DNA of 64,000 nucleotides from Patescibacteria group bacterium. GTDB taxonomy: Bacteria; Patescibacteriota; UBA1384; XYA2-FULL-43-10. Positions 3,188 through 63,339 of this stretch are shown here, in pieces; position 1 is the first letter of the stretch, and every line of letters begins with the position of its first letter. The DNA is taken from positions 7,120 to 71,119 of the forward strand of contig JBAYVT010000005.1 of NCBI GenBank assembly GCA_041674405.1. Direction: 5' to 3'. The notes below the pieces were generated by a model that was not told the DNA's origin, made no database searches, and worked only from the letters and a program-made list of their open reading frames with translations. Made by a program: the position numbers and the translations under genes.

Positions 3188-3253
3188 GACCTGTGCAATA
3201 ATACATTTTTGTGCTAATATCCGCTTGTTGTTACACAACTGGAGGTGTTGGCA

Positions 3254-3439
3254 ATGTCAGCGTTTTCTCTCAGGAAAACCGCCGTGAAGAAACCCGGGGC
3301 TTGTCCGATCTGTCACGATACCGGAATGCATCGGTCTGGCGGTCGAACTCGCAACTGCAGCTGCCCGAAGGGCCGCGAACTCGCCAAGAAGGAGAAGGCC
3401 AACCGCGCGGAAGCGAAGAGAGCAGCCAAGAAGAAGTAG
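3254..3439 (+). CDS. Small basic zinc-ribbon-like protein (CPICH...CSCP) in GC-rich cassette A
   Basis: GGAGGTG SD at 3241-3247, 6 nt before the ATG. Local GC is far above the flanks. A C-terminal Lys/Arg/Ala tail. A terminator hairpin follows directly. Confidence 0.5.
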   Translation: MSAFSLRKTAVKKPGACPICHDTGMHRSGGRTRNCSCPKGRELAKKEKANRAEAKRAAKKK

Positions 3440-3466
3440 TAGTCAGGGCCAACGCCTCGACCCGGT

Positions 3467-3500
3467 AACCCGCCACTTAAGGCGGGTTTGCTGGTTTATT
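3467..3500 (+). terminator. Rho-independent terminator (CCCGCC-ACTTAA-GGCGGG then T-rich)
   Basis: Stem-loop at 3469-3486 followed by TTTGCTGGTTTATTTG. Confidence 0.6.
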
Positions 3501-13972: not shown

Positions 13973-14206
13973 CTAGCGACATGCTGGGCACTTCACTGAC
14001 GACTCCAGCACCTCGACAATCGTGTCCAGAAACATCGACTGAAGCTGGCGCAACCCCTCCTGTGTTTCAAGGAGATCTCGTACCGACCTCGTTACTCGGT
14101 GGCCACACCTCGTGTAGAGCACCGTCGTCTCCTCGCCGAAGCGATCAAGAATCTCTCGCCTCGTAACAGACTCCCGTTCTCTCGCTTTCGTTTCTTCTCT
14201 CTGCAT
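13973..14206 (-). CDS. Small Cys-containing protein (77 aa; CGH...CPAC) in GC-rich cassette B
   Basis: AGGGGGG SD 7 nt upstream of ATG 14206. Own promoter and terminator. GC-rich codon usage unlike the neighbours. The ORF is open to 14245 but the RBS supports 14206. Confidence 0.45.
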   Translation of the reverse strand: MQREETKARERESVTRREILDRFGEETTVLYTRCGHRVTRSVRDLLETQEGLRQLQSMFLDTIVEVLESSVKCPACR

Positions 14207-14244
14207 AATATTCCCCCCTTTCAGGCAACCACACATTAGCACCA

Positions 14245-14272
14245 TTATGTAAGCACATCAACACCAATTCAA
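14245..14272 (-). promoter_or_regulatory. Sigma70-like promoter for cassette B (TTGAAT, 16 bp, CATAAT on minus strand)
   Basis: Reverse complement of 14267-14272 is TTGAAT and of 14245-14250 is CATAAT. Confidence 0.4.
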
Positions 14273-21092: not shown

Positions 21093-21121
21093 TTGACAAA
21101 GTCTCACAATTGTGTTATCTT
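21093..21121 (+). promoter_or_regulatory. Sigma70-like promoter (TTGACA, 17 bp, TATCTT) at the left edge of GC-rich island C
   Basis: Read directly in the sequence. A second TTGACA lies at 21131. Confidence 0.4.
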
Positions 21122-21319
21122 GGAAGAGTTGACAATTTCCGGTATAAAAAATAACCGGTGAGCGTCAAGGTTCTTTATATCTGAAGGCCCCAAAACCTGC
21201 AAAGGTGGCGGGGCTTTCGATTTTTCAAAGCTGCGTTTCCCATCGTGAATGGAAATATTCCAAATACGATGGGCAGCACAGCCTGAAGTCGCAGCAAACA
21301 ACACAGCAAAGGAAGATGC

Positions 21320-21844
21320 ATGATGCGTTATGTGAAGATCATACTGGCTGCATGGTTGGTGGGATTCATGGTAGCCTACGGGCTTTCCTTCATCCCACCT
21401 CGAGGAGAGATCCTCGACAACATCCTTCCGCCCCATGATATGGGCGGGAAGTGGGAGTTGACCGTCAACTCCACTCCTTGGCACGGTATCAACGCGTGCA
21501 AGTGGGAGTGGTGGGTCGACGATGAAACCCCCACAAACATCGAAAGGTCATTCCTCGTTCGCGGCAGCACCGCTGCCAAGGTCGAAGGAAGGGCGAGCTA
21601 CTACGGCCTCGTGCTTGGTGGCTTCCGCCCGTGGATTAGTGCAGTTGGTTGGGGAGCGTTCTTTCTCTGGCTCATCACTTTTGGCCTGCTACGGCAGAAC
21701 AGAGTCAAGCCAGGAAGGGAATTGTCTTCTTCCCAACGTCGCGCCCAGTCGCCTTGGCGCGACAGCCGTCGGCAATCAGTAGCACGAATCCGGCAAAAAC
21801 GCGCTGTTGTCAAGGCCGTTAACCAGATTCCGATTGACGACTAA
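21320..21844 (+). CDS. Hypothetical membrane protein (174 aa, 2 TM, Arg-rich C-terminus) in GC-rich island C
   Basis: AGGAAG RBS. High GC3 compared with the flanking genes. No recognisable domain. Confidence 0.4.
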   Translation: MMRYVKIILAAWLVGFMVAYGLSFIPPRGEILDNILPPHDMGGKWELTVNSTPWHGINACKWEWWVDDETPTNIERSFLVRGSTAAKVEGRASYYGLVLGGFRPWISAVGWGAFFLWLITFGLLRQNRVKPGRELSSSQRRAQSPWRDSRRQSVARIRQKRAVVKAVNQIPIDD

Positions 21845-22027
21845 GTCGCTCACAGCAGAATGTCTGAGTAGACAGGCGTATCGCGCGACCGTTCATATAC
21901 GGCATGCGTACCGCTCATCGAAAAGCCAACTGCCGGAGTACATGTCAGTGATCGCAATCGTACACCATTCGTACGCAGCGGACACTGATGTCACAAAGCC
22001 TCTCCCGGGCTTAACAGGGATTTCCAA

Positions 22028-22060
22028 CGAGACCGCCCTCCATAGCGGTCTCGTTTTGCG
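22028..22060 (+). terminator. Rho-independent terminator (CGAGACCGC-CCTCCATA-GCGGTCTCG then TTTT) ending island C
   Basis: A perfect 9-bp stem followed by a T4 run. Confidence 0.6.
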
Positions 22061-43415: not shown

Positions 43416-43593
43416 GCATAGAATAATTATAGCAAAAACAATTGGGAATGAAACCCGATTCTTTGTACAAAATTATTGTAGCAAACATATTTGCAAAACA
43501 AAAGCAAAAAACGGCCGCCCGGAGGGCAACCGCTTTTGCGTGCGATCATTTTGTACTTCTTCCCAGTATGATCAAACTGGGGAATGTAGCACG

Positions 43594-44436
43594 TTACGGT
43601 CTCGTACCAGTGCTTCGGAAGCGAATGCCCCCGATGCGAACGCGGAACTCGTAGTTAGTCCCGGCAGGAGCCTGCTGTTCCCACTCTTCCCACAGGTTAC
43701 CAGCCATGCGAACGATATTCGGCCAGAACAACCATACCAGCAGGCCGATAACACCTCCGATGACCAGGACCAGGACCGCCCAGCGCCAGACCTCCCCTCT
43801 GACCTGAGCGCCCGTCATAGGCGGCGCAGCCGGGGCCTGGACGGCCGGCATGATCGTAGCAGGAGCGACAGGTACCGGCACGGACGGAAGCGGCGCGATC
43901 TGCGGCTGGGCCGCAGGGGGCGCCAAGGGGGCGGCGGCCGGGGCCTGCGGAGTCTGGACCGGCGCAGGTGTCGTGGCAGTGGGCGGGGCGGTGGGAGCAG
44001 AAGCAGGATCGGTCTTGGTCGGCGCATCCGTCGTCTTGAGGACATAGCGCTTGTCCAGCTGGCCCTGCGTCTTGTAGCCCCAATCCTGCAACCAGGCGTT
44101 GGAAGCGGTCTGTCCCGCAGGGGGCAGCCCGTTAATCCCATGCTGCTCCAGGTTATCTACCCGGCCACCCAGGGCGTTGAGCTGCCCCTGGAGGTGGCTG
44201 ATGTTCCCAGACGCCCGGCGGGCACGGGGAACATCGCGGTGGATCGTGGCCTGAGCTAGCTCCTGCCTTGCGGTGGCAAGCTGGCCCTGCAGGCTGGCGA
44301 TCTCGGCGTCCTTCGCCGCGATCTGCGCGGCGTTGTTGGTCGGAGCCGGAATCGGCCCCTGTGCCAAGACGGCGCAAGCAGACAAAACGACCAGGAACAA
44401 AACGGCTATCAGGTTGTGGGTGGTGAAGTTTTTCAC
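43594..44436 (-). CDS. Secreted/anchored Pro-Ala-rich protein (signal peptide, coiled coil, PAPA repeats, C-terminal TM) in GC-rich island E
   Basis: AGAGAGG RBS. Signal peptide MKNFTTHNLIAVLFLVVLSACAVLAQG. PTAPPTATTPAPVQTPQAPAAAP repeats. C-terminal TM VLVLVIGGVIGLLVWLFW. GC-rich codon usage. Confidence 0.5.
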   Translation of the reverse strand: MKNFTTHNLIAVLFLVVLSACAVLAQGPIPAPTNNAAQIAAKDAEIASLQGQLATARQELAQATIHRDVPRARRASGNISHLQGQLNALGGRVDNLEQHGINGLPPAGQTASNAWLQDWGYKTQGQLDKRYVLKTTDAPTKTDPASAPTAPPTATTPAPVQTPQAPAAAPLAPPAAQPQIAPLPSVPVPVAPATIMPAVQAPAAPPMTGAQVRGEVWRWAVLVLVIGGVIGLLVWLFWPNIVRMAGNLWEEWEQQAPAGTNYEFRVRIGGIRFRSTGTRP

Positions 44437-44722
44437 TTCAACCTCTCTTTCTGCCCTTCTCGAGGGCTATCGCAATAGCGCTCGAGGTCGGACAGGTATT
44501 TGTCTTCCTCGGAGCAATGTATCTGCCAGCATTCGCGCCAGAATAATGATCACGCCAGAATTACGCTGATCTTGCATTCACATTGCTTCGAAGAAGTATA
44601 TATTGTTAAGGTGCCATCGCTCTCAGTATCCCACTTCGCTACGCTCCGCGGGATTATTAGGCTAAAGCCTAATAAAAAGTGCGATAAGGTGCTGTACAAC
44701 AACACGGGTGGAGGGGGAACCC

Positions 44723-44809
44723 ATGGCTCAAACGACGAATCGTTTGAATGTCATACAGCACGCTACCGCACTAATATTTCAGGAAAGTGTGCGACATTGT
44801 GCCGGATAG
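44723..44809 (+). CDS. Possible 28-aa micro-ORF with super-SD (GGAGGGGGAA) in island E
   Basis: MAQTTNRLNVIQHATALIFQESVRHCAG. A paralogous micro-ORF lies 110 nt downstream. Confidence 0.25.
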   Translation: MAQTTNRLNVIQHATALIFQESVRHCAG

Positions 44810-44833
44810 CAGTCACAGGCGGAGGGGGAACCT

Positions 44834-44956
44834 GTGTCTCGATATGTTTCCGAAGAAACAATCAAGAAAGCTATCCAGCACGATGTCGCACAATGTTGTA
44901 ATTTCCCTTCCAAGAGCTTAAGATCCCTCTCTCACCCTCGGAACACGCTATTGTAG
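44834..44956 (+). CDS. Possible 40-aa micro-ORF (GTG start) with identical GGAGGGGGAACC leader
   Basis: VSRYVSEETIKKAIQHDVAQCCNFPSKSLRSLSHPRNTLL. Shares the IQH..A motif with the upstream micro-ORF. Confidence 0.2.
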   Translation: MSRYVSEETIKKAIQHDVAQCCNFPSKSLRSLSHPRNTLL

Positions 44957-45077
44957 CATATACTATAAATTTTGTCAAGACCTTTAATTTATTACTTTCT
45001 AAAATAAATTGTAGTGTGATAAAATATTGATGTAATTATAAAAAGCTCTATTTTGAAAGAATAAAAGAAAGGAAGAT

Positions 45078-48075: not shown

Positions 48076-48170
48076 AATTTATCTTGAAGATTGTATCAAA
48101 AACGACCCAAACTCTCAAGAGAGCGGGCCGTTTTTGTTTACAATACCTTAGCTATAACTAGATATCGTAA

Positions 48171-48713
48171 TTATTTCAATTCAACTGTTGCGCCGGCTTC
48201 TTCAAGCTTCTTCTTGGCGGCTTCAGCATCTTCTTTTTTCATGCCTTTAGCAAGCTCTTTTGGAGCGCCGTCAACTAAATCTTTGGCTTCTTTAAGACCA
48301 AGATCGGGCTTGATTTCACGCACAGCCTTAATAACTTGGATTTTCTTGTCTCCGGCTGAAGCAAGAATTACGTCGTATTCCGACTTCTCTTCCGCTGCTT
48401 CTGCTGCACCGGCACCACCAGCTGCTACTGCGCCGGCCATTGCGACTGGGGCAGCTGCAGAGACACCAAATCTCTCTTCAAGCTCTTTGACAAGTTCTGA
48501 AAGCTCAAGCACGGAAAGATTCTCAATCTCTTTAATAAGATCTTTAAATTTGCCGGATGGAGCTGGTTTTTCAGCTTTTTCTTCCGCTTTTGGCTCTTCT
48601 TCTTTGGCCTCTTCTTTAGCTTCCTCTTTGACTTCCTCGGCCGGGGCTTCGGTAGTCTCGGTTTCTTGCGTTGCCTCGACGGCAACTTCTTCTTTTTTCT
48701 CTTCGTCTGCCAT
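48171..48713 (-). CDS. rplL: 50S ribosomal protein L7/L12 with about 50-aa acidic N-terminal extension
   Basis: Core [24 protein letters not shown]...[11 protein letters not shown]...[16 protein letters not shown] matches L12. GGAG RBS. The extension is [49 protein letters not shown]. Confidence 0.85.
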
Positions 48714-48767
48714 GTTAACTCCTATAAAATTTAACTAAGAACTAATAATTAAAAACCGACAACCAAT

Positions 48768-50349: not shown

Positions 50350-50378
50350 TTGACTGTATTGAAAAAACATTGTATATT
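50350..50378 (+). promoter_or_regulatory. Sigma70-like promoter (TTGACT, 17 bp, TATATT) for GC-rich cassette D
   Basis: Read directly in the sequence. Confidence 0.45.
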
Positions 50379-50421
50379 CTTCCTACCCCTTGCGATACTC
50401 CCAAAGAGAGGAGGTGGCAAC

Positions 50422-50673
50422 ATGTTGGATCAGATGCCGGCAGAAACAAGCGCCGCTGCCAAGCAACTCGATGAGGCAATATTGGCAACACTCTCTGCTG
50501 AAGCTGGTCTCCCCTATCCAGTGCTGGCCATACTGGATTCTGTTCGACATCGTACCCAGTCAAGGATAGAAGAACATGCCTTGCTCAGACGACTAGGCCA
50601 CTTAGTGCAGATGGGCACAATCAAGCAAGACCGGGACCGCCGCTCCGGCTCACCAAGATGGCGAATCCGATAG
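50422..50673 (+). CDS. Small (83 aa) putative winged-helix regulator-like protein in GC-rich cassette D
   Basis: GGAGGTG SD 5 nt before the ATG. LDEAILATLSAEAGLPYPVLAILDSV...EEHALLRRLGHLVQMGTI matches a wHTH pattern. GC-rich. Followed by a GGGGGAGGTG plus GTG 9-codon mini-ORF and a terminator. Confidence 0.4.
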   Translation: MLDQMPAETSAAAKQLDEAILATLSAEAGLPYPVLAILDSVRHRTQSRIEEHALLRRLGHLVQMGTIKQDRDRRSGSPRWRIR

Positions 50674-53543: not shown

Positions 53544-55565
53544 TTAATTCACACTTTTTCTGGAGGCCTTAGTGAGTAATTTTTTTTGCTTGAGATAAGT
53601 CAAGTTTACTCCCGCAAACAAAGATCCAAGAAGGCTCAAAACCCCACCGGCTGCAGCGCCGGTCTTGGGAAGAGGGGTGCTTGCTGGCACAACTTTGGTC
53701 AAAATCACGGTTTGGGCAGTCGAAGAAATAGTATTTCCGCCCATAGACAAATATCCCGTATTTATCAGTTGTTCCCCAGCGGCAATATTTGCAGAAGTGA
53801 TCACCCTGAATCTTACATAGCCTGATTGTCCAGGAGCTAAGGTGTTGATGATAAATCCCTTGGTGACATCTTCAGAAATTACATGTTCAGTGCCATCCAA
53901 GTTAATTATCGCAGGAACCGAAGTATCCAGGGCAACATTGGCTGGAAGGACATCGGAAATCTTCACCTGGTCAGCTGGCCCATCTCCAGTGTTTGCAAAA
54001 TCAATTTTGTATTCCAGCATGTCTCCAGGAAAGGCTGTATTTGATTTGGAAAATTCCAATTCATTGCTGGTGATATTTCTAACAACTTTATTGATCGACA
54101 AGACAGGCTCTCTGTGTGGTCTTAGAATTATAATCGTGATTGTATTTCCATACTCGTTAAATAATTTATCATCGAAATGAAAACCATTTTGCGGGTTATC
54201 AGGCAATGGGTCCATCACCTTAACCGTAAATTTCCTAACCACATTTTGCCCCGGATCAATTCGAACTTCCGGCCAAATTACTTCTTTGGAATTATTACCT
54301 TCCTCTGGATTATCTTTGACAATACCCCCATTACTTATACTGACAATGTTTGATTCCTCTAACACATCGCCGATACCATCCGAAACCACAAAGTTAGTAG
54401 CAATGGTTCCGGTGTTTTTGGTGTTCAAGGTATAAATAATAACATCGCCAGGCCTGGCAGGAGTAGATGTCGCATCAACTTTCAAAGTATCATTATAAGC
54501 AGACTTTGAACGATGAATATTAACAACTCCGGCTTTCAAGTCAACAATGGCTTCATCGTTAACGTTAATATTACCTGAAATTGCATAGGCAACATTCGTT
54601 ACAGATTTTGCAACCAATATGTAAGAAGGCGCTTTTGCACGAAATTTAATCACCGCGCCATTTTCCGCGCCAACCTTAAGGCTGCCAATACTTACTCCAC
54701 TAGCAAAAAATCCGGCTGCGTCAAGATTGGTTGTGCTGTCCTCTTTGGTCATCGTAAGGGAATTATCCACATAGGTTAAATCCGAAGGCAGGCCATCAGA
54801 AGCTGTAACTTCCTCAAGCGTTGATTCTCCAGGATTGGTAATATTTATTTTGTATTCCACTGACTCGTTTTGATCTACAGATGTGCGCTCGACAAAACTA
54901 GTCTCATTCTTCGAAATGTTCCTTACCGCTTTCTCAATATGCAGATTACCCGGATTCACTTTTGCAGTTGTTTTAAACTGGAACATTACAAAACCGGCAA
55001 ATTCCCAACAACCATTGATATCTCCGATATTCAAGCCAGACGAAGATAGAAGTTCTGATCCGTCTTGCCCAAAAGGAAGCGGAGTTGGATTGTTTATATC
55101 AGGATTGCTTGCCTGATTTGGAAACCACTTAACAGAACCAGGAACCAGTTTAAGCGTTGCATTTTGATCAAGATTAACAGTCAACGTATCAGAAACTGCA
55201 GCTACGCTATCAGCTGAAATTGTGGCGGACAAAACAGCTGTTTTGTTGGTGGTCTGTGCAGGCATGGATACCTTAATGGTTGTATTTTCAGCGGTAGTAT
55301 TGACCTGGCCATTGTGATAATAAATTAAACCATCTATCACATCACCAGCCTGCCCGTCTACAGGATCACGCCAATCATCATCCTGTGTATCACGAGTTGA
55401 ATTAAAACCCCTAAAAAGCTCCTGATCACCCGGCAGGAAATTAAACCTCGGGCCATCGGCATTGATTCCGATTGCAGGTGAAATAACTTGAGAAATCAAA
55501 AGCGCTGCGGCGGCTACGCCTAAAACATACTTTAATTTCTTTTTAATTTGTGAAAACCATTTCAT
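53544..55565 (-). CDS. Cell-wall-anchored surface protein with DUF11-type repeat domains and C-terminal LPXTG sorting signal
   Basis: N-terminal signal peptide. C-terminal LPKTG, then a hydrophobic stretch and a KQKK tail. An N-terminal PRFNFLPGDQE...GCWEFAGFV domain is shared with the downstream paralog. Confidence 0.7.
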   Translation of the reverse strand: MKWFSQIKKKLKYVLGVAAAALLISQVISPAIGINADGPRFNFLPGDQELFRGFNSTRDTQDDDWRDPVDGQAGDVIDGLIYYHNGQVNTTAENTTIKVSMPAQTTNKTAVLSATISADSVAAVSDTLTVNLDQNATLKLVPGSVKWFPNQASNPDINNPTPLPFGQDGSELLSSSGLNIGDINGCWEFAGFVMFQFKTTAKVNPGNLHIEKAVRNISKNETSFVERTSVDQNESVEYKINITNPGESTLEEVTASDGLPSDLTYVDNSLTMTKEDSTTNLDAAGFFASGVSIGSLKVGAENGAVIKFRAKAPSYILVAKSVTNVAYAISGNINVNDEAIVDLKAGVVNIHRSKSAYNDTLKVDATSTPARPGDVIIYTLNTKNTGTIATNFVVSDGIGDVLEESNIVSISNGGIVKDNPEEGNNSKEVIWPEVRIDPGQNVVRKFTVKVMDPLPDNPQNGFHFDDKLFNEYGNTITIIILRPHREPVLSINKVVRNITSNELEFSKSNTAFPGDMLEYKIDFANTGDGPADQVKISDVLPANVALDTSVPAIINLDGTEHVISEDVTKGFIINTLAPGQSGYVRFRVITSANIAAGEQLINTGYLSMGGNTISSTAQTVILTKVVPASTPLPKTGAAAGGVLSLLGSLFAGVNLTYLKQKKLLTKASRKSVN

Positions 55566-55619
55566 TTTTTATCCTTTTTTAGCCCTCCGCGAACACATTA
55601 TTTTATTTCTAATAAATAC

Positions 55620-57173
55620 TTAAAAAGTTGGTGCAGGAATCGGCATAAGCCTTAGAATCGAACGCGCAATGTCGGAAATTTCCGCTACATTATCCCCCTT
55701 TACAAAAGCAGTATTGGTAAGGGTGTAATCTCCGATCGGCGGGCAACCAACAATAATCCCTGATAACTTGATGATCTTACTCTGGCCCGGATTCATATTA
55801 CCCAAGCTAATTCCGCCGGCGAAAGTGATTCCATCTGGAACTGAAATACCATTAACCGTCGTGGAACCGGGGACATAATTTACATAAAGCGGAAAGATGT
55901 CTCTAGCTTTAACGTTAGTTACAGCCGCATTTCCGGTCGCAGTAACAACGATTTTATAAGTGATCTTTTCTCCCAATTTCACATTATTTTGTTCAACCCA
56001 GGTTGATCCGCTTAATACGGTTTTCTGAATTGTTAATCCAGATGTTGTCGAAACAATCACTCTTGCTGTGCTCTGGCCCTTAAACACTCCGGCCATAAAA
56101 AGCTTCGCTAAGTTGTCGAGGGTTAGCGTCCCTGCGGGAACTGTCGAATCAACTTTCACTTTGTATATAACCCTGATTGACCCAGCGTCGAGAGGCGCGA
56201 TATTCGGCAGATTAACCCCGGTAGAAAAAATCGTATCTGGCAGCTTTACTCCGGCTGGATGTGAAGCATCGAAATAAAAGGTTGTGCCTGTTTCATACTT
56301 CATATGAAGAGGTAATACATCTTTAACTGAAACATTGTTCGCAGTTACATTTCCACTATTTTCAACTTCCAACTTATATTCAACTACTTCTCCTGGATTC
56401 GCGGTAATCTCTTTGTGCCAGACATTTTCATTCAAGTGCTTAACATTCTTATCAATTGAAAGAGCTGTGTTGCCTTTGATTTTTCCGACAAATGTTACAA
56501 ACCCCGCAAACTCCCAGCATCCATTTATATTTCCTATATTTACGCCATTTGCGCTGGTAATTCCATCAGGCAATGATTGTCCGGGTTGGCCAACATGAGT
56601 GGCTTGTTCGGGAAACAATTTAGTTGAACCGGGCACATATTCGATTATTCCACTTGACGGAAGATTAATTGTCTGTCCCGATATGCCTTTGACTGCGCCA
56701 TTGATTATAGTGTCATAGATTGGGGCAGTTTCATCTGACCACAGAGCGCTTGTCTCTTTTAGCGCATTTGACTCGCCTGTCGGCAGTGAAACGCGAATAC
56801 GTACATTGTGGGCTGTCGAATTTAACATTCCATTGTGGTAATAGACCAAAAATGCAACTTCATCACCGATATTGGCATCGATCGGGTCAGCCCAATCATT
56901 GCCCGAAGAAACAACAGATGCACGAAGCATCTCCTGGTCGCCAGGTAAGAAATTAAATCTTGGTGTTTGGCTTGTGTTATTTGATTCGGCAACTTTGGCA
57001 TTTGAAGAAACCAAAGACAGCGAAATCAAACTTACAACAGCCAAAATAACGCCAATTGTTCTTTTGGTTTTTGAAATTCTTGTTTTTGATTTGTCCTTAA
57101 CTCCGTGAAACAATTTCTCTCTCATTTTTTGAAAGAATGACATGTTTCTCCTTACTAGGCTTAAGAATTTCAA
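55620..57173 (-). CDS. Secreted DUF11-repeat surface protein paralog (no LPXTG)
   Basis: Signal/TM segment, then the same PRFNFLPGDQEM...NGCWEFAGFVTF N-terminal module and DUF11-like repeats (VSVKDVLP, VTNVKARDIFP). Confidence 0.6.
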   Translation of the reverse strand: MKFLSLVRRNMSFFQKMREKLFHGVKDKSKTRISKTKRTIGVILAVVSLISLSLVSSNAKVAESNNTSQTPRFNFLPGDQEMLRASVVSSGNDWADPIDANIGDEVAFLVYYHNGMLNSTAHNVRIRVSLPTGESNALKETSALWSDETAPIYDTIINGAVKGISGQTINLPSSGIIEYVPGSTKLFPEQATHVGQPGQSLPDGITSANGVNIGNINGCWEFAGFVTFVGKIKGNTALSIDKNVKHLNENVWHKEITANPGEVVEYKLEVENSGNVTANNVSVKDVLPLHMKYETGTTFYFDASHPAGVKLPDTIFSTGVNLPNIAPLDAGSIRVIYKVKVDSTVPAGTLTLDNLAKLFMAGVFKGQSTARVIVSTTSGLTIQKTVLSGSTWVEQNNVKLGEKITYKIVVTATGNAAVTNVKARDIFPLYVNYVPGSTTVNGISVPDGITFAGGISLGNMNPGQSKIIKLSGIIVGCPPIGDYTLTNTAFVKGDNVAEISDIARSILRLMPIPAPTF

Positions 57174-57328
57174 TTTATTACTCGCACAAAACCATACTAA
57201 ATTCTTGAGCTAATGTCAATGTGTTTTTTCACTTTTTTCACCTTACCAAACATTCAAAATTTAAATGCTTGGTCGGTGGCCCTGGCGCATAGCGCCAGGG
57301 CACCGGTTTAGTTGTACCACACCGCCCG

Positions 57329-58003
57329 CTAGGGCGGTGTGGGCGTGGGCACGGGGATCGGATCCCCGCAGGTCCCCGGCACCTTCTCCTCCTTGTTCGC
57401 CATCCCGGCGAATAGGGTGAGAAGCGTCTCGGTACAGCCTTCGATCACCCGAGCCATGCCCACCGGGCAATCCGGGAGAGGCTGGCTGGGGCTGATCCCC
57501 GCAGGAGCGACCCACTCCCGAGCCGGCGCGTACACGACGTACGGTACCGGGTAGGGCTTGGGGATCTCTACGACCACCGGGTAGGGTACCTTGACCTCAA
57601 CCCGCTCAGGACACGCCAGTTTGCACGCTGGCGGTACCGGAGTGCATGGGATGAAGAAGCGGCCCCTAGCTAGGTTACCGCACCGCACCATACGGGTAAT
57701 CGTGTACCAGCGCCCCTGTACCCCGTCCTTGCAGCCCATCTCTGCAGGTACTGCGTAGACAGTTTCTGTGGGGATCAGGTACCCGGGAACGAAGCGACCT
57801 TCGGACTCAAACCAGACCTCGGCGTCGACATACTGATTGAGCCGGTAGGCCTCCTGGCCGTTGATCGCCGGGCAGTGCCGCCCGATCGGGTACGTGTTCG
57901 TGATCTTCTCCGAGAGGTTGATGCCCGAGGCAAACGCTGCCCCGACCATGACCATCAAGAGAAGGGTGAGGATCAGCGTCAGCTTACCCCTCATGGATCT
58001 CAC
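57329..58003 (-). CDS. GC-rich secreted Cys/Pro-rich protein (224 aa) in island F
   Basis: Signal peptide MRSMRGKLTLILTLLLMVMVGAAFASG. A PVPYVVYAP Pro-rich segment. Very high GC3. Overlaps the upstream gene by 20 nt. Confidence 0.5.
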   Translation of the reverse strand: MRSMRGKLTLILTLLLMVMVGAAFASGINLSEKITNTYPIGRHCPAINGQEAYRLNQYVDAEVWFESEGRFVPGYLIPTETVYAVPAEMGCKDGVQGRWYTITRMVRCGNLARGRFFIPCTPVPPACKLACPERVEVKVPYPVVVEIPKPYPVPYVVYAPAREWVAPAGISPSQPLPDCPVGMARVIEGCTETLLTLFAGMANKEEKVPGTCGDPIPVPTPTPP

Positions 58004-59276
58004 CTCCTGTGAGAATCAGCACTTTGACTTTCCCGTCGAGCGGGTACGTCCAGGTGCGAGTGTCCGGAGATGTGGACAGCGCGAAATGCGTATAGCCACG
58101 CGCTGCCTCACACGTGAACCAGGACTCTCCCTTGTCTCTCGCCGCGACCGTAAACGGTGCGTTGGGAGCGATCCAGCGGCCATCTTGCTGAACCCACAGG
58201 AAGAGTGTCGCCGATGTCTCGCCGGACTGCTCGTCCAGCGCCACGACGAAGGTGGAGTCGGTATGCGCCTCGCGGAGGCGCTCGGCCTGAGACTTTACCG
58301 GCGGTGCCGAGGTAGTGACAGGCGTGGTCGTAGTGGAAGGCTGAACGGAAGCAGGGGGCGGATCCACAGGAGAAGCTTGCTGCTGCTCCTGCATCTTCCG
58401 TAGCACCGCTTCCGCCGCTTCCGCCCGCTCACGCTCTGCCTGAGCCTGGGCCTTAGCGGCTGCGGCCTCGGCTTGCGCCGCGGCAACTGCCGGATCAGGC
58501 CCGTTCTGCCGAGGCATGAACGGAGGTGCGAACCCCTGTGCAGCGCGCGCTGTAGCAGTCGAGATCTCCTGGTAGTCAGCTGGCTTGCAGGCCAGCATTA
58601 TACTAGAGGAGAACATACTGTAGACACGCGACCGGTAGACCGGCCACAGGGCCTTGGGAAGGTCCTTTTCGCACTGCACGCCGCACTGCCCGTTGAGGAA
58701 AGAGACGATGTCGGCGTTTACGTTCTGTACGTTGAACGCTATGGCCGACTGGTCGGTCCTCATGACATGGTCAGCGTGCCTGATGAAGAAGAACCTGTAG
58801 TCCCTTCGGGACTGATCGTGGCGAACCTCTGACACGAGGAAGTAGCGGCCAGGACCGAGCCGATTGAGATCAACCCAGAGCCGGTTATCCTCCGCAGAAA
58901 CACACAGCCCGTCCAGTCCCTCAACTTCGACCCGGGTTCCCTTCAGGTGGCAGTCCTCAATCCCGAATACCCTCAGGTCCACCGACATGCAGCAGGTCTC
59001 TTCGGTGATCTTGTATGGCCTAGGATACCCCTCCGAACAGTCCTCGGAGACCGGAGCCGTGAAGGTCTGGCCCAGAGCCCAGCCGTTCACCGTGCCACCT
59101 TCCTTGTTGCTGAAAGTGACAATTGCGGTGGGCGAACTGATGACCGTGGTTCCCTTGACCGTGATCAAAGGGATACCAAACCCACCGAAGATCGTGGTCT
59201 CGTCGGCCGAAGCCGGCGCGAGACAGACCGCCAGAATGGCAGCCAGAACCAGCAGTACGACGAATCTAGTGCGCAT
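57984..59276 (-). CDS. GC-rich secreted protein (430 aa) with Ala/Gln-rich linker in island F
   Basis: AAGGAGG RBS 8 nt upstream. Signal peptide MRTRFVVLLVLAAILAVCLAPASA. AAAQAEAAAAKAQAQAERERAEAAEA linker. No recognisable domain. Confidence 0.5.
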   Translation of the reverse strand: MRTRFVVLLVLAAILAVCLAPASADETTIFGGFGIPLITVKGTTVISSPTAIVTFSNKEGGTVNGWALGQTFTAPVSEDCSEGYPRPYKITEETCCMSVDLRVFGIEDCHLKGTRVEVEGLDGLCVSAEDNRLWVDLNRLGPGRYFLVSEVRHDQSRRDYRFFFIRHADHVMRTDQSAIAFNVQNVNADIVSFLNGQCGVQCEKDLPKALWPVYRSRVYSMFSSSIMLACKPADYQEISTATARAAQGFAPPFMPRQNGPDPAVAAAQAEAAAAKAQAQAERERAEAAEAVLRKMQEQQQASPVDPPPASVQPSTTTTPVTTSAPPVKSQAERLREAHTDSTFVVALDEQSGETSATLFLWVQQDGRWIAPNAPFTVAARDKGESWFTCEAARGYTHFALSTSPDTRTWTYPLDGKVKVLILTGGEIHEG

Positions 59277-59750
59277 GGTTATGCGCCTCCTTGTGAGTCC
59301 CCTTAGCGGGGTTAGTGTCCCCGCAGGGGGATTTTGTATTCATCTATATCAAAGTGCCACCTCGCTCGCTGCGCAGGTGGCACAGTGAACGAGGTCAATC
59401 TCCGCCAAAACCGTAGTCTTGGCAAGAGGCGAATGATTTAAAAGTCATCACGCCTTCTGCCAAAAAAGTTCTTCAATTATTTTTGACCTTTCCAACCTCG
59501 GCTCGACCATCGGACGAGACGGGTGATTTTCGAATTATCTTCACAGATCCAGCCAGGAATAAGGCGAGAAACGATCAAGGTATTAGCCAGACCAGGTTCG
59601 CATTTTTTAAGGAACCATCAATGTCAGCTATAGAGCTTGCCGCCCATAAGGCCCCTTATTCCCAGCCAGACCCGTAAAAACAATCTCTCAACTTCGGTCG
59701 AGATAAATCTCCGCTTCAGTCGATGTAAACAATTTCTCAATTCCCTTGGA

Positions 59751-59784
59751 ATAAAAAACGGAATGGAAATCTCTTTCCATCCCT
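59751..59784 (-). terminator. Rho-independent terminator 3' of the cupin PGI gene
   Basis: Minus-strand GGATGGAAAGAGATTTCCATTCC hairpin followed by GTTTTTTATT. Confidence 0.55.
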
Positions 59785-59851
59785 CACTTTCACGAGAATT
59801 ACTTTAGCACAATTATCGAATCTTGTCAATATCTGACTCTACTATTTCGCA

Positions 59852-60637
59852 TTATTCGAACAAATTAGCTACAGACAGATCGGATAAATATTTCTCTGGA
59901 TTTCTCAAAAAATCAACCCGAGACAGATCGGTAACATAATCATATGCCGGATTATCAAGATAAGGCCCAATAATTTTGGGGGCTGATTTCAGATTTTTAA
60001 CCGGCAGGAGTTCTCCGTATCTTGGATTTTTGACAATTTTCTTTTCACCAAATTTATCTAAAATATAATATGCAGCTCCCTGTTTATTTTCAAATTCAGA
60101 ATAATCAGAATCGAAACCATTACAAACCCAGTTTGCCATTACAAGAGTGCGATTTCCGGCGTTGATTGTGGCGTGTCCATATCCTGGGGGTATAACGATT
60201 GAGTTTCCCTCTTCAACTTGGCAGATAATCACATCGGTCACAATGCCGTTCTCTAAATTTTGCACAAGACATGTTGCGACGCCAGACGCTACATAATATA
60301 ATTCCGGATATTGAAAATTTGTACCCTGCTTGTTTGGGTGATAATGCCCTATGGTTTTTATATATTCATCTCCAATTTTGGCTGGCGGCACAACGGTAAG
60401 ATCAAATCTCAAATTGGAATTTGAAATTTTCTCGGCATCAGCCATTTTTTTTACGCCTCGGTACATTAAATATGAAGAATTGTCAGAGAGTGGAACGTCC
60501 TGATTGGCAGCAACTGGGCGAAGGTCGGAAAATTTTCTCTCACTGACTTTTTCCACGTCGACAGCGGCACCAAAAGACAGCCTGCCGTTTTCTTCAAGCA
60601 GAGCAGAAAAGCCGATTTTGTCCGTAAGATTAGTCAT
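59852..60637 (-). CDS. Cupin-type glucose-6-phosphate isomerase (archaeal-type cPGI) with about 70-aa N-terminal extension
   Basis: TIGHYHPNKQGTNFQYPELYY matches the cPGI signature T-x-GH-x-H-x(6-11)-E-x-Y. VIPPGYGHATINAGN matches PP-x3-H-x3-N. The C-terminal DYSEF...VKNPRYG aligns to the Pyrococcus PGI end. Confidence 0.6.
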   Translation of the reverse strand: MTNLTDKIGFSALLEENGRLSFGAAVDVEKVSERKFSDLRPVAANQDVPLSDNSSYLMYRGVKKMADAEKISNSNLRFDLTVVPPAKIGDEYIKTIGHYHPNKQGTNFQYPELYYVASGVATCLVQNLENGIVTDVIICQVEEGNSIVIPPGYGHATINAGNRTLVMANWVCNGFDSDYSEFENKQGAAYYILDKFGEKKIVKNPRYGELLPVKNLKSAPKIIGPYLDNPAYDYVTDLSRVDFLRNPEKYLSDLSVANLFE

Positions 60638-63117: not shown

Positions 63118-63339
63118 CTAAAATTCATCGTCAGCTGCGCCTTGCATCCTTTCAAGCGGTATTTCTTCTTCTGCAAGATCCATCGGCTCAAATTCTTCAC
63201 CAGGATAATCATTCTCTTTTCGGGTATCATCATCAGTGTCGCCGATATTGACCATACTACCGCCACAGGGGCATTTCTCTTCACCCGGATCATCTAGTGT
63301 AGAGTGTCCGCATTCTTCGCAGACCCATTCATTTGGCAT
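63118..63339 (-). CDS. Small zinc-ribbon protein (CEEC...CPC) with acidic C-terminal tail
   Basis: 73 aa. The WVCEECGH and EKCPCGG Cys pairs. Own terminator. Upstream of cysS on the same strand. Confidence 0.5.
   Translation of the reverse strand: MPNEWVCEECGHSTLDDPGEEKCPCGGSMVNIGDTDDDTRKENDYPGEEFEPMDLAEEEIPLERMQGAADDEF

Follow-up and report, generated by a model that had tools for sequence, protein, structure and literature searches.

Genes A and B are two adjacent GC-rich genes on the minus strand of a 64,000-nucleotide stretch from a Patescibacteria group bacterium (assembly GCA_041674405.1, contig JBAYVT010000005.1, positions 7,120 to 71,119; this whole stretch is hereafter called the window). 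A sequence-only reading had taken them for a foreign, acquired pair of secreted-protein genes. Instead, they form a single transcription unit that has been inherited vertically within a small clade of Patescibacteria and is confined to it. We propose, with a probability of about one half, that their GC-richness is held not by foreign ancestry but by selection on the RNA, the message having to be heavily base-paired. The unit consists of a consensus promoter, a folded leader of about 520 nt located within the 575-nt spacer between the upstream gene GPI and A, two coupled genes for Sec-exported, cysteine-containing proteins, and a set of GC hairpins. Its parts are listed here in the order of transcription.

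59801 to 59829, minus strand: sigma-70-type consensus promoter, about 20 nt after the GPI stop codon, with TTGACA, a spacing of 17 nt and the extended -10 element TGTGCTAAAGT.
59750 to 59783, minus strand: 10-bp hairpin followed by a U-run, downstream of the promoter, found by the terminator scan.
59686 to 59703, minus strand: second hairpin followed by a U-run, found by the same scan.
59534 to 59684, minus strand: the rod, a 150-nt unbranched RNA hairpin of six helices with a 24-pair basal stem.
59417 to 59465, minus strand: leader hairpin 2, whose purine-rich 5' strand UUGGCAGAAGGCG pairs with the CU-rich 3' strand CGCCUCUUGCCAA; its apical length varies.
59338 to 59399, minus strand: leader hairpin 3 (inverted repeats I3 and I4), GUGCCACCU...AGGUGGCAC inside CCUCG...CGAGG, with the conserved block GGCACGUU-A-AUAG behind it.
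59286 to 59292, minus strand: ribosome-binding site of A, AAGGAGG, 9 nt before the ATG and preceded by two short GC hairpins (about 59297 to 59332).
57984 to 59276, minus strand: gene A, 430 amino acids, founder of a small new family (best E value of 1e-41 in an exhaustive HMMER search).
57329 to 57994, minus strand: gene B, 221 amino acids from an ATG (224 from a GTG at 58003), translationally coupled to A.
57317 to 57342 and 57279 to 57301, minus strand: two perfect GC hairpins of 11 bp (spanning the stop codon of B) and 10 bp (inverted repeats I13 and I15).

The open reading frame (ORF) scan confirmed the two genes on the minus strand, A at 57984..59276 (430 amino acids) and B at 57329..58003 (224 amino acids from the GTG). 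A proper ribosome-binding site (GGAGGTG) lies 6 nt before another start of B, the ATG at 57994; the resulting protein has 221 residues, in line with the public annotation (P0001). The overlap of 20 nt given by the sequence-only reading thus holds with the GTG start of B and shortens to 11 nt with the better-supported ATG, while the description of the pair as GC-rich signal-peptide proteins with very high GC at third codon positions (GC3) and an AAGGAGG site stands, the latter site belonging to A. The GC content is 0.61 for A and 0.63 for B in a window of about 0.40 overall, and GC3 reaches 0.715 and 0.791, compared to 0.34-0.40 in GPI, Dus, CysS and both neighbouring DUF11 genes. GC remains at 0.56-0.68 across about 57,262-59,400. 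In a 200-nt profile it steps sharply from 0.37 to 0.67 at about 57,262, right after the 3' hairpins, and declines gradually between 59,400 and 59,750. The encoded proteins are shifted as well: A and B together contain 2.9% Cys, 8.6% Pro and 3% Lys, against 0.6%, 3.2% and 10% in the flanking genes, in agreement with the earlier description of B as Cys/Pro-rich.

The family of A was delimited by an exhaustive HMMER search of 1.84 billion representative proteins, which returned 15 matches: 12 real relatives, two repeat proteins that we regard as noise, and P0002, a truncated 204-residue representative of A at 50% identity that corresponds to residues 227-430. A word-index search with A found nothing, its 8000 candidates being saturated by the low-complexity linker; it missed even the self-hit because P0002 is truncated and the linker is of low complexity. 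With two cluster members added, the family alignment holds 14 relatives of 337-442 amino acids, all singletons from metagenome assemblies, which share the same signal peptide and domain order and are 19-31% identical to the A of the window over a full-length alignment. The loci of nine relatives were looked up (four further family members were not), giving ten loci with the window: L004/L010, L006, L007, L008, L009, L011, L045, L046 and L047, each found behind GPI and/or before DUF11-RF1. All ten show the same gene order, (RecR-CysS-)Dus-GPI-long spacer-A-B-DUF11/CLIPPER-RF1, and the overlapping starts of A and B are kept in most of them, which bears out the earlier view of the pair as one operon. 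A scan by means of a GPI alignment covered 35 GTDB species genomes that have a related GPI of the cupin type; of these, only the two closest, L010 and L011, carry A and B.

These loci share not only their position but also their composition. Across the ten, A and B have a GC content of 0.53-0.65 and a GC3 of 0.55-0.79, next to flanking genes of 0.36-0.49 GC; the codon deviation of the window's A and B from the flanking genes (GC3 0.72-0.79 versus 0.34-0.40) is thus real but common to all of them. L008 and L011 provide the clearest comparison, with 67% identity for both A and B, 66% for GPI and 67% for CysS, a dN of 0.25 and a dS of 1.4, and dN/dS of about 0.18 for both A and B. Over 15 pairs from six loci, the pairwise identity of A follows that of GPI with a Spearman coefficient of 0.75. 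From the low dN/dS and from identities that track GPI and CysS, we conclude that A and B are protein-coding, under purifying selection and co-diverged with their neighbours. The signal of A and B is more than chance, given the full-length homology (E value 1e-41) and the dN/dS of about 0.18. Synonymous sites are saturated between most species while GC3 is high throughout; ancestry from a GC-rich donor therefore cannot explain GC3, which some force holds at this level. One candidate, translational selection for codons ending in G or C, was rejected, as the ribosomal protein, FtsZ and enolase genes have a GC3 of only 0.34-0.41.

A recent horizontal acquisition of a foreign secreted-protein pair would fit the contrast of 0.2-0.4 in GC and GC3 with the flanks and the lack of named homologues. 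We give it hardly any credence, as syntenic and equally GC-rich orthologues with saturated synonymous sites, 19-33% identical to the A of the window, occur in nine other species and no mobility features are present. The best matches lie within the same lineage at similar GC, and the divergence of A tracks that of GPI, so that the foreign origin proposed earlier fails. The locus does deviate in composition from its host genome as a genomic island would, but the presence of A and B is not patchy with closest homologues outside the lineage, since all loci with context are syntenic and patescibacterial. Neither an integrase nor a transposase was detected, there is no tRNA in the window, and flanking repeats are only short and at chance level. 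No match to the A and B proteins or to the rod was found in 50,697 phage records, 72,556 plasmid records and IMG/VR. These same observations bear on a second possibility, in which the leader-A-B cassette would be replaced recurrently at the same site from a GC-rich reservoir, either a mobile element or a donor lineage, with the leader and the 3' hairpins as recombination sites. The strong compositional contrast with its sharp edges, the conserved sequence at the 5' edge, the hairpins at the 3' edge, the modular B genes and the other small GC-rich islets in this genome and its relatives would all suit such a cassette. We nevertheless consider it quite improbable: the ten loci all occupy the same slot of AT-richer Patescibacteria, the mobile-element collections contain neither the proteins nor the rod, an integrase, transposase, tRNA and target duplication are all lacking, and A diverges in step with GPI.

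The assembly itself appears sound. Three further assemblies of different runs or samples (a 28.7-kb Logan contig, a JGI contig and a second Logan contig) are 99.98-100% identical to this region and all span the junction at 57.2 kb; the 59.5-kb edge is spanned only by the longest, L001, whose sequencing run may be the source of this genome. This excludes a mis-join at either 57.2 or 59.5 kb, and the passage from GPI into A is moreover found in the locus of every relative. The GC-rich DNA also contains three plus-strand ORFs of 180, 174 and 119 amino acids antisense to A and B (57,861-59,388), which are an expected by-product of such composition. The existence of long ORFs on both strands, together with the very strong folding of the transcript, could be taken as the mark of a large structured non-coding RNA with by-product ORFs, or of an assembly chimera. 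We regard this as scarcely credible: the chimera is contradicted by the three near-identical assemblies, and the non-coding RNA by full-length protein homology, conserved signal peptides, dN/dS of about 0.18, ribosome-binding sites at both starts and a coding pattern in which GC at first codon positions (GC1) exceeds that at second positions (GC2), which in turn is below GC3.

The spacer between GPI and A is far better conserved at the nucleotide level than A itself. A promoter scan gave 10 of 12 matches for the promoter, with the TG of the extended -10. TTGACA and TG-n-TA..(A/T)T are found at the same place in L004, L008, L011, L045, L046 and L047, L007 retaining the -10 element only. Downstream of it, the hairpin at 59750..59783 is probably the GPI terminator and would also provide the A/B transcript with a 5' stem-loop. 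Promoter, hairpin, T-run and rod follow one another in this order in L004, L008, L011, L045 and L047 too. A terminator-like stem-loop at the very start of a transcript may stabilise the 5' end, serve as an attenuator or merely be a coincidence arising from the compact layout of the genome. Matches of terminator type on the plus strand were also reported by the terminator scan at 59317-59332, near the ribosome-binding site of A.

The basal stem of the rod holds the invariant self-pairing CUGGCUGG/CUGGCUGG, in which G-C pairs alternate with conserved G.U pairs; because of these G.U pairs, the structure is specific to the RNA of the gene strand. RNAalifold, applied to eight full-length copies, predicted 51 pairs, 31 of which show compensatory changes. 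In this alignment 90.4% of cells are paired, compared to 34-55% when partners are slid by 1-3 columns, and none of 500 column shuffles reached the observed values. The covariance model built from the rod, R1, scores 144 bits in the window and detects the rod at all ten A/B loci (two copies being cut by contig ends). It has no further match in the window, and 33 GPI loci without A and B gave none. An exact-pattern scan of JGI metagenomes added only 3-4 contigs, each consisting of GPI, the rod and GC-rich DNA. In Rfam 15 nothing matched at the gathering threshold in the 64 kb, and at E <= 1 the interval 57000-60000 gave only two chance-level matches, located on the 3' hairpins. The rod thus combines covarying structure on the gene strand with a constant position upstream of one gene family, as a cis-regulatory leader RNA would, and we present it as a new candidate cis-acting leader motif.

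The rest of the leader is structured as well, with GC-rich stems and AU-rich loops, and as a whole it folds with a z score of -7.18. Hairpin 2 is predicted in the window, L004, L006, L008, L011, L045, L046 and L047, with changes on both strands (a covariation judged by eye and unscored). It contains the conserved block TCTCTTGCC, and its CU-rich strand is partially complementary to the ribosome-binding region CAAGGAGGCG. The outer stem of hairpin 3 covaries between CCUCG/CGAGG, UCUCG/CGAGA and CUUCG/CGAAG. Several other identities for these elements were considered and rejected. A miniature inverted-repeat transposable element or other repeat was discarded because CTGGCTGG and R1 match only the A/B locus within the window, and a sigma-54 promoter in the conserved GGCAC block because the -12 GC is absent. 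A retron, integron or defence system does not fit either, as A and B have no match in Pfam, PADLOC, PHROGs or NCBIfam and the ends of the rod are unlike the R'/R'' of attC; nor could a tRNA or known non-coding RNA cause the GC peak, none having been found in the window. At the other end of the unit, one to three perfect GC hairpins directly follow B in every relative. In the window they are real, although the sequence-only reading had placed them at 57262-57325, slightly offset from their actual positions. They lack a proper U-run, and the terminator scan reports no terminator there; the hairpins of the relatives mostly lack U-runs likewise.

The coding region itself is folded more tightly than its composition predicts. 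In windows of 150 nt the message of A reaches about -57 kcal/mol, compared to about -30 kcal/mol for housekeeping genes. Relative to synonymous shuffles, the excess of fold stability (minimum folding energy difference) over ten species amounts to 10-26% for A (z scores of -3.4 to -8.4) and 8-18% for B (-1.9 to -7.7), and local dinucleotide shuffles agree. For the first 1000 nt of A the folding energy is -452.5 kcal/mol, versus -408.8 ± 10.5 kcal/mol when shuffled (z -4.15), CysS giving a z of -0.38. Adjacent housekeeping genes show an excess of -7 to +4%, and GC-rich archaeal genes from unrelated contigs (GC3 0.58-0.75) one of -3 to +7%. High GC alone does not produce over-folding, because these archaeal controls lack a comparable excess, and high GC3 as the sole cause was rejected on this ground. 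The sense strand is also more over-folded (z -5.6) than the antisense strand (z -3.1).

Several observations weigh against selection on RNA structure as the full explanation, and some of them also speak for GC-biased gene conversion at a recombination hot spot in a fast-evolving surface locus, with over-folding as a secondary effect. Frequent exchange between strains would there be accompanied by biased heteroduplex repair that raises GC at every codon position. The shift towards GC affects amino-acid usage and each of the three codon positions; that of GC1, GC2 and amino acids is more than structure alone seems to need and looks like a general GC pressure on DNA, and a GC3 as high as 0.79 need not follow from selection for structure. 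B genes carry head domains of at least three unrelated types: the N-terminal domain of the window's B is 36-41% identical to that of L004, L008, L011 and L045, a second and different one is common to L006, L009 and L046, and L007 and L047 each have yet another. Moreover, the A of the window is closest to that of L006, yet their B genes differ. These swapped heads and discordant histories show that some recombination between lineages has occurred. A also evolves faster than its neighbours, as gene conversion would have it. Even so, we find gene conversion an unlikely main cause. It does not predict the folding excess of 8-26% over synonymous shuffles or the sense-strand bias, nor GC-rich stems whose loops remain AU-rich. 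Further, the GC step is razor-sharp and coincides with the transcript ends, the adjacent DUF11 adhesin genes, which are equal candidates for diversifying selection, are not GC-rich, and between L008 and L011 the unit has simply diverged in step with GPI and CysS.

Other difficulties concern the folding and the promoter. The excess is weaker for the B of the window (z -1.6 to -2.7). It is not wholly specific to A and B, because the single DUF11 gene of L011 (9812-11884) has an mRNA folding excess of 11% (z -5); the 673-residue DUF11 gene of the window has a weak one (z -1.8 to -3.4). The stability of the message is a property that we infer from folding energies only. The promoter lies upstream of a terminator-like hairpin and U-run, and the U-run overlaps the 5' strand of the basal stem of the rod, an order that could mean that the true start site lies elsewhere. 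Finally, homology and fold give no support for a function of the two proteins.

Both proteins begin with Sec-type signal peptides, read from the sequence as MRTRFVVLLVLAAILAVCLAPASA|DE in A and MRGKLTLILTLLLMVMVGAAFA|SG in B. Signal peptides of the same basic, hydrophobic and A-x-A type occur in all family members, so that the earlier view of A and B as exported proteins is well founded. In A the signal peptide is followed by a conserved N-terminal beta-sandwich with long hairpins (residues ~38-185) and a helical subdomain (187-246). Behind the conserved motif QGFAPP come a helix or coiled coil of 40 residues (262-301), with a heptad-like pattern in the homologues, and then a Pro/Thr linker that leads to the C-terminal beta-sandwich (342-429). 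The Ala/Gln-rich segment described earlier lies at about residues 258-300. This layout comes from an AlphaFold2 model based on the family alignment, with a predicted local distance difference test (pLDDT) score of 74.8, whereas the single-sequence model (pLDDT 42) was of no use. The N-terminal two thirds are conserved in the family, while the C-terminal domain is swapped for another in several members. In B, the signal peptide is followed by a small domain that contains Cys (motif R-x-VRCGN-x-ARG), then by a PEVK-like stretch rich in Val, Glu and Pro and finally by a Pro-rich tail; the sole database entry for B is itself, a "hypothetical protein, Patescibacteria group bacterium".

Searches for known counterparts yielded only the relatives of A. 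Neither the two proteins nor their variants matched Pfam, PHROGs, NCBIfam, PADLOC or PDB sequences, and Foldseek with the model of A returned nothing from PDB and BFVD beyond generic Ig-like sandwiches at E > 1e-3. A lipoprotein assignment does not apply, as the LAVC of A is not conserved in homologues and the signal peptide of B has no Cys. No LPXTG-like motif, C-terminal transmembrane segment or other C-terminal anchor was found in A or B, so that they do not resemble sortase substrates. Surface-layer (S-layer) proteins are usually large, acidic and Cys-free. A and B have 10 and 9 Cys and no S-layer homology (SLH) or related Pfam match, which sets them apart from that class. A cell-surface role, as suggested from sequence earlier, is nevertheless plausible because A and B always adjoin CLIPPER/DUF11 surface-protein genes, and we infer that the two are fast-evolving envelope or surface proteins.

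The neighbours downstream of B are two DUF11/CLIPPER proteins of 673 and 517 amino acids (53,544-57,173, minus strand), preceded by a promoter with TTGACA at 57219. They had been described as DUF11/LPXTG genes; both do have DUF11/CLIPPER domains, but a sorting signal is present only in the 673-residue protein (LPKTG, a transmembrane segment and the basic tail KQKK), the 517-residue one ending in PIPAPTF. No sortase gene was found in the locus. Between the GC hairpins of B and the DUF11 promoter lie AT-rich palindromes, at 57,236-57,262 in the window (CCAAGCATTTAAATTTTGAATGTTTGG) and also in L045 and L047 (TAATCAAAC..GTTGATTA), L009 and L011; they may be operator sites or real terminators.

The A/B unit resembles several known systems without coinciding with any. 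With a genomic island it shares a sharp GC and codon deviation and ORFan-like secreted-protein genes beside surface-protein genes. Unlike an island, it occupies the same site in every examined relative that bears the family, has co-diverged with its surroundings and keeps its deviation beyond synonymous saturation. Long structured 5' leaders stabilise the mRNAs of abundant envelope proteins, as in the 5' untranslated region (UTR) of ompA and the leaders of S-layer genes. The strong promoter, 5' stem-loop, long folded leader, exported envelope genes and 3' hairpins of A/B are similar, but at about 520 nt its leader far exceeds theirs in length and includes a strongly covarying 150-nt rod, and the Cys-rich A and B differ from typical S-layer proteins. 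To our knowledge, a coding region that is both GC-enriched and over-folded has not been described for genes of the ompA or S-layer type. Stems processed by RNase III are known from the rnc and pnp leaders, phage early mRNAs and rRNA precursors. Like them, the rod brings distant leader segments together in a near-perfect duplex of more than 20 pairs, its cleavage being a prediction only. It departs from them in its invariant G.U-rich CUGGCUGG duplex and conserved internal loops, which suggest a specific ligand rather than a generic double-stranded RNA site. An excess of folding energy of about 10-25% over order-shuffled controls along whole coding regions recalls the genome-scale ordered RNA structure of some positive-strand RNA viruses, whereas A/B is a chromosomal bacterial operon without replicase or RNA-virus features.

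Two further comparisons come from the literature. Sortase-dependent fibrillar adhesin and pilin loci contain CLIPPER (DUF11) isopeptide domains (PMC12617251). One or two CLIPPER/DUF11 proteins always come immediately after A and B, and LPXTG, a transmembrane segment and a basic tail are present in at least one of them. A and B themselves contain neither a CLIPPER, CnaA or CnaB domain nor a sorting signal, and no relation to pilins could be detected. Structured RNA motifs have been sought in GC-rich intergenic regions of AT-rich genomes (PMC8723152, PMC11109978), and the rod answers to that description, being a covarying structure in a long, GC-richer intergenic region upstream of one gene family; its unbranched shape differs from that of a typical multi-stem aptamer.

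On this basis, we propose that dense base-pairing would make the A/B message nuclease-resistant, with protected 5' and 3' ends, and long-lived because of this resistance. Such a long-lived and tightly controlled message would suit cells whose capacity for transcription and translation is very limited. Control or processing of the message would fall to the rod together with the remaining hairpins of the leader: stems like the 24-pair one at the base of the rod are cut by RNase III or recognised by double-stranded RNA-binding proteins, and the CU-rich strand of hairpin 2 could mask the ribosome-binding site. At the protein level, A may combine a conserved N-terminal part for attachment or assembly with a stalk formed by the coiled coil and an outer domain that varies, and B interchangeable head domains on a proline-rich, wall-spanning tail; where the cell touches its host, both would work together with the sortase-anchored CLIPPER adhesins encoded next to them. 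A more speculative possibility is that the composition is tuned to a GC-rich host cell, codon usage and RNA robustness being kept at the level of a host bacterium in or on which the RNA or DNA would act. Patescibacteria are cell-surface symbionts, cultured Saccharibacteria live on GC-rich Actinobacteria, and transferred genes that carry the expression signals of their recipient offer an analogy; two of the relatives, L010 and L011, are labelled Saccharibacteria, and a GC3 of 0.7-0.8 kept by selection rather than ancestry would be in line with it. However, no transfer machinery is linked to the locus, the Sec signal peptides and the operon are ordinary, and the ribosome-binding sites are like those of the genome's own genes, which makes such tuning very improbable.

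The GC-rich islet phenomenon is probably broader than the A/B operon, as two longer islets and several small ORFs of elevated GC occur elsewhere in the window and in the relatives.

43,440 to 44,990, minus strand: islet D, with the same architecture as the A/B unit (consensus promoter at 44978-44950, leader of about 510 nt, gene, terminator).
21,093 to 22,058, plus strand: islet C, where a promoter (TTGACA at 21093-21098, -10 at 21116-21121) precedes a leader some 200 nt long.
50,350 to 50,673, plus strand: small GC-rich ORF of 107 amino acids.
3,211 to 3,468, plus strand: small GC-rich ORF of 85 amino acids.
13,973 to 14,245, minus strand: small GC-rich ORF of 90 amino acids; these three ORFs have a GC content of 0.52-0.57 and lie between housekeeping genes.
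L004, 1186 to 1539, minus strand: small ORF of 117 amino acids, GC 0.52.
L046, 1908 to 2165, minus strand: 85-residue membrane protein, GC 0.585, GC3 0.71.
L007, 12366 to 12554, plus strand: third GC-rich secreted ORF, directly after B.

The leader of islet D folds (z score -10.7) into a tandem pair of rod hairpins in which the loop motif GGUUCCCCCUCC(G/A)CC(U/C)GUG is repeated. Its gene (43594-44436, GC 0.66) encodes 280 amino acids with a signal peptide, a coiled coil, a Pro/Ala-rich region and a transmembrane segment, and a search with the first 150 residues found no homologue. The gene of islet C (21320-21844, GC 0.56) encodes a 174-residue membrane protein and is followed by a 3' UTR of about 200 nt and a terminator at about 22029-22058; its coding region is over-folded, with z scores of -6.3 against dinucleotide shuffles and -4.3 against synonymous shuffles. 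The 107-residue ORF, located between Pth and L1, reads like a winged-helix protein, is absent from the corresponding slot of L004 and has no folding excess. From the small GC-rich ORFs in the AT-rich surroundings of the relatives, GC-rich islets seem to be a trait of the clade. A tentative extension of our proposal, which we would sooner bet against than for, is that the clade keeps a class of "armoured" units, defined by a consensus promoter, a rod leader, genes for exported proteins and a high-GC message whose ordered structure, at levels otherwise seen in viruses, is kept by selection over long evolutionary time, with A/B as the conserved archetype and islets C and D as further examples.

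Two other ORFs were noted in passing. The 215-residue plus-strand ORF at 48,091-48,738 seems to be a non-coding shadow of a minus-strand gene because its GC2 is 0.64 and its GC1 0.36. An acidic zinc-ribbon protein of 72-96 amino acids (MP(D/N/E)EW(V/L)C(D/E)(E/D/Q)CGH...), without a Pfam hit, lies between RecR and CysS in all relatives, at the following positions among others.

Window, 63,118 to 63,339, minus strand: zinc-ribbon protein.
L004, 5955 to 6179: zinc-ribbon protein.
L008, 4912 to 5130: zinc-ribbon protein.
L046, 3066 to 3356: zinc-ribbon protein.

What is new here are two families of exported proteins, a leader RNA motif and a persistently GC-rich, over-folded message. The A/B unit is a counter-example to the routine reading of a GC and codon island with ORFan secreted proteins as horizontally acquired, and the new motif and families sit in a surface-protein locus of hard-to-culture Patescibacteria, whose attachment to their hosts is largely uncharted. 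If armoured units exist as a class, they would represent a new post-transcriptional design principle, with a new class of leader RNA as control element. If selection for folding is at work, it would give cells with few ribosomes and polymerases a way to secure the output of key envelope proteins, and GC-rich, over-folded units in AT-rich genomes would become a signature by which such genes can be found.

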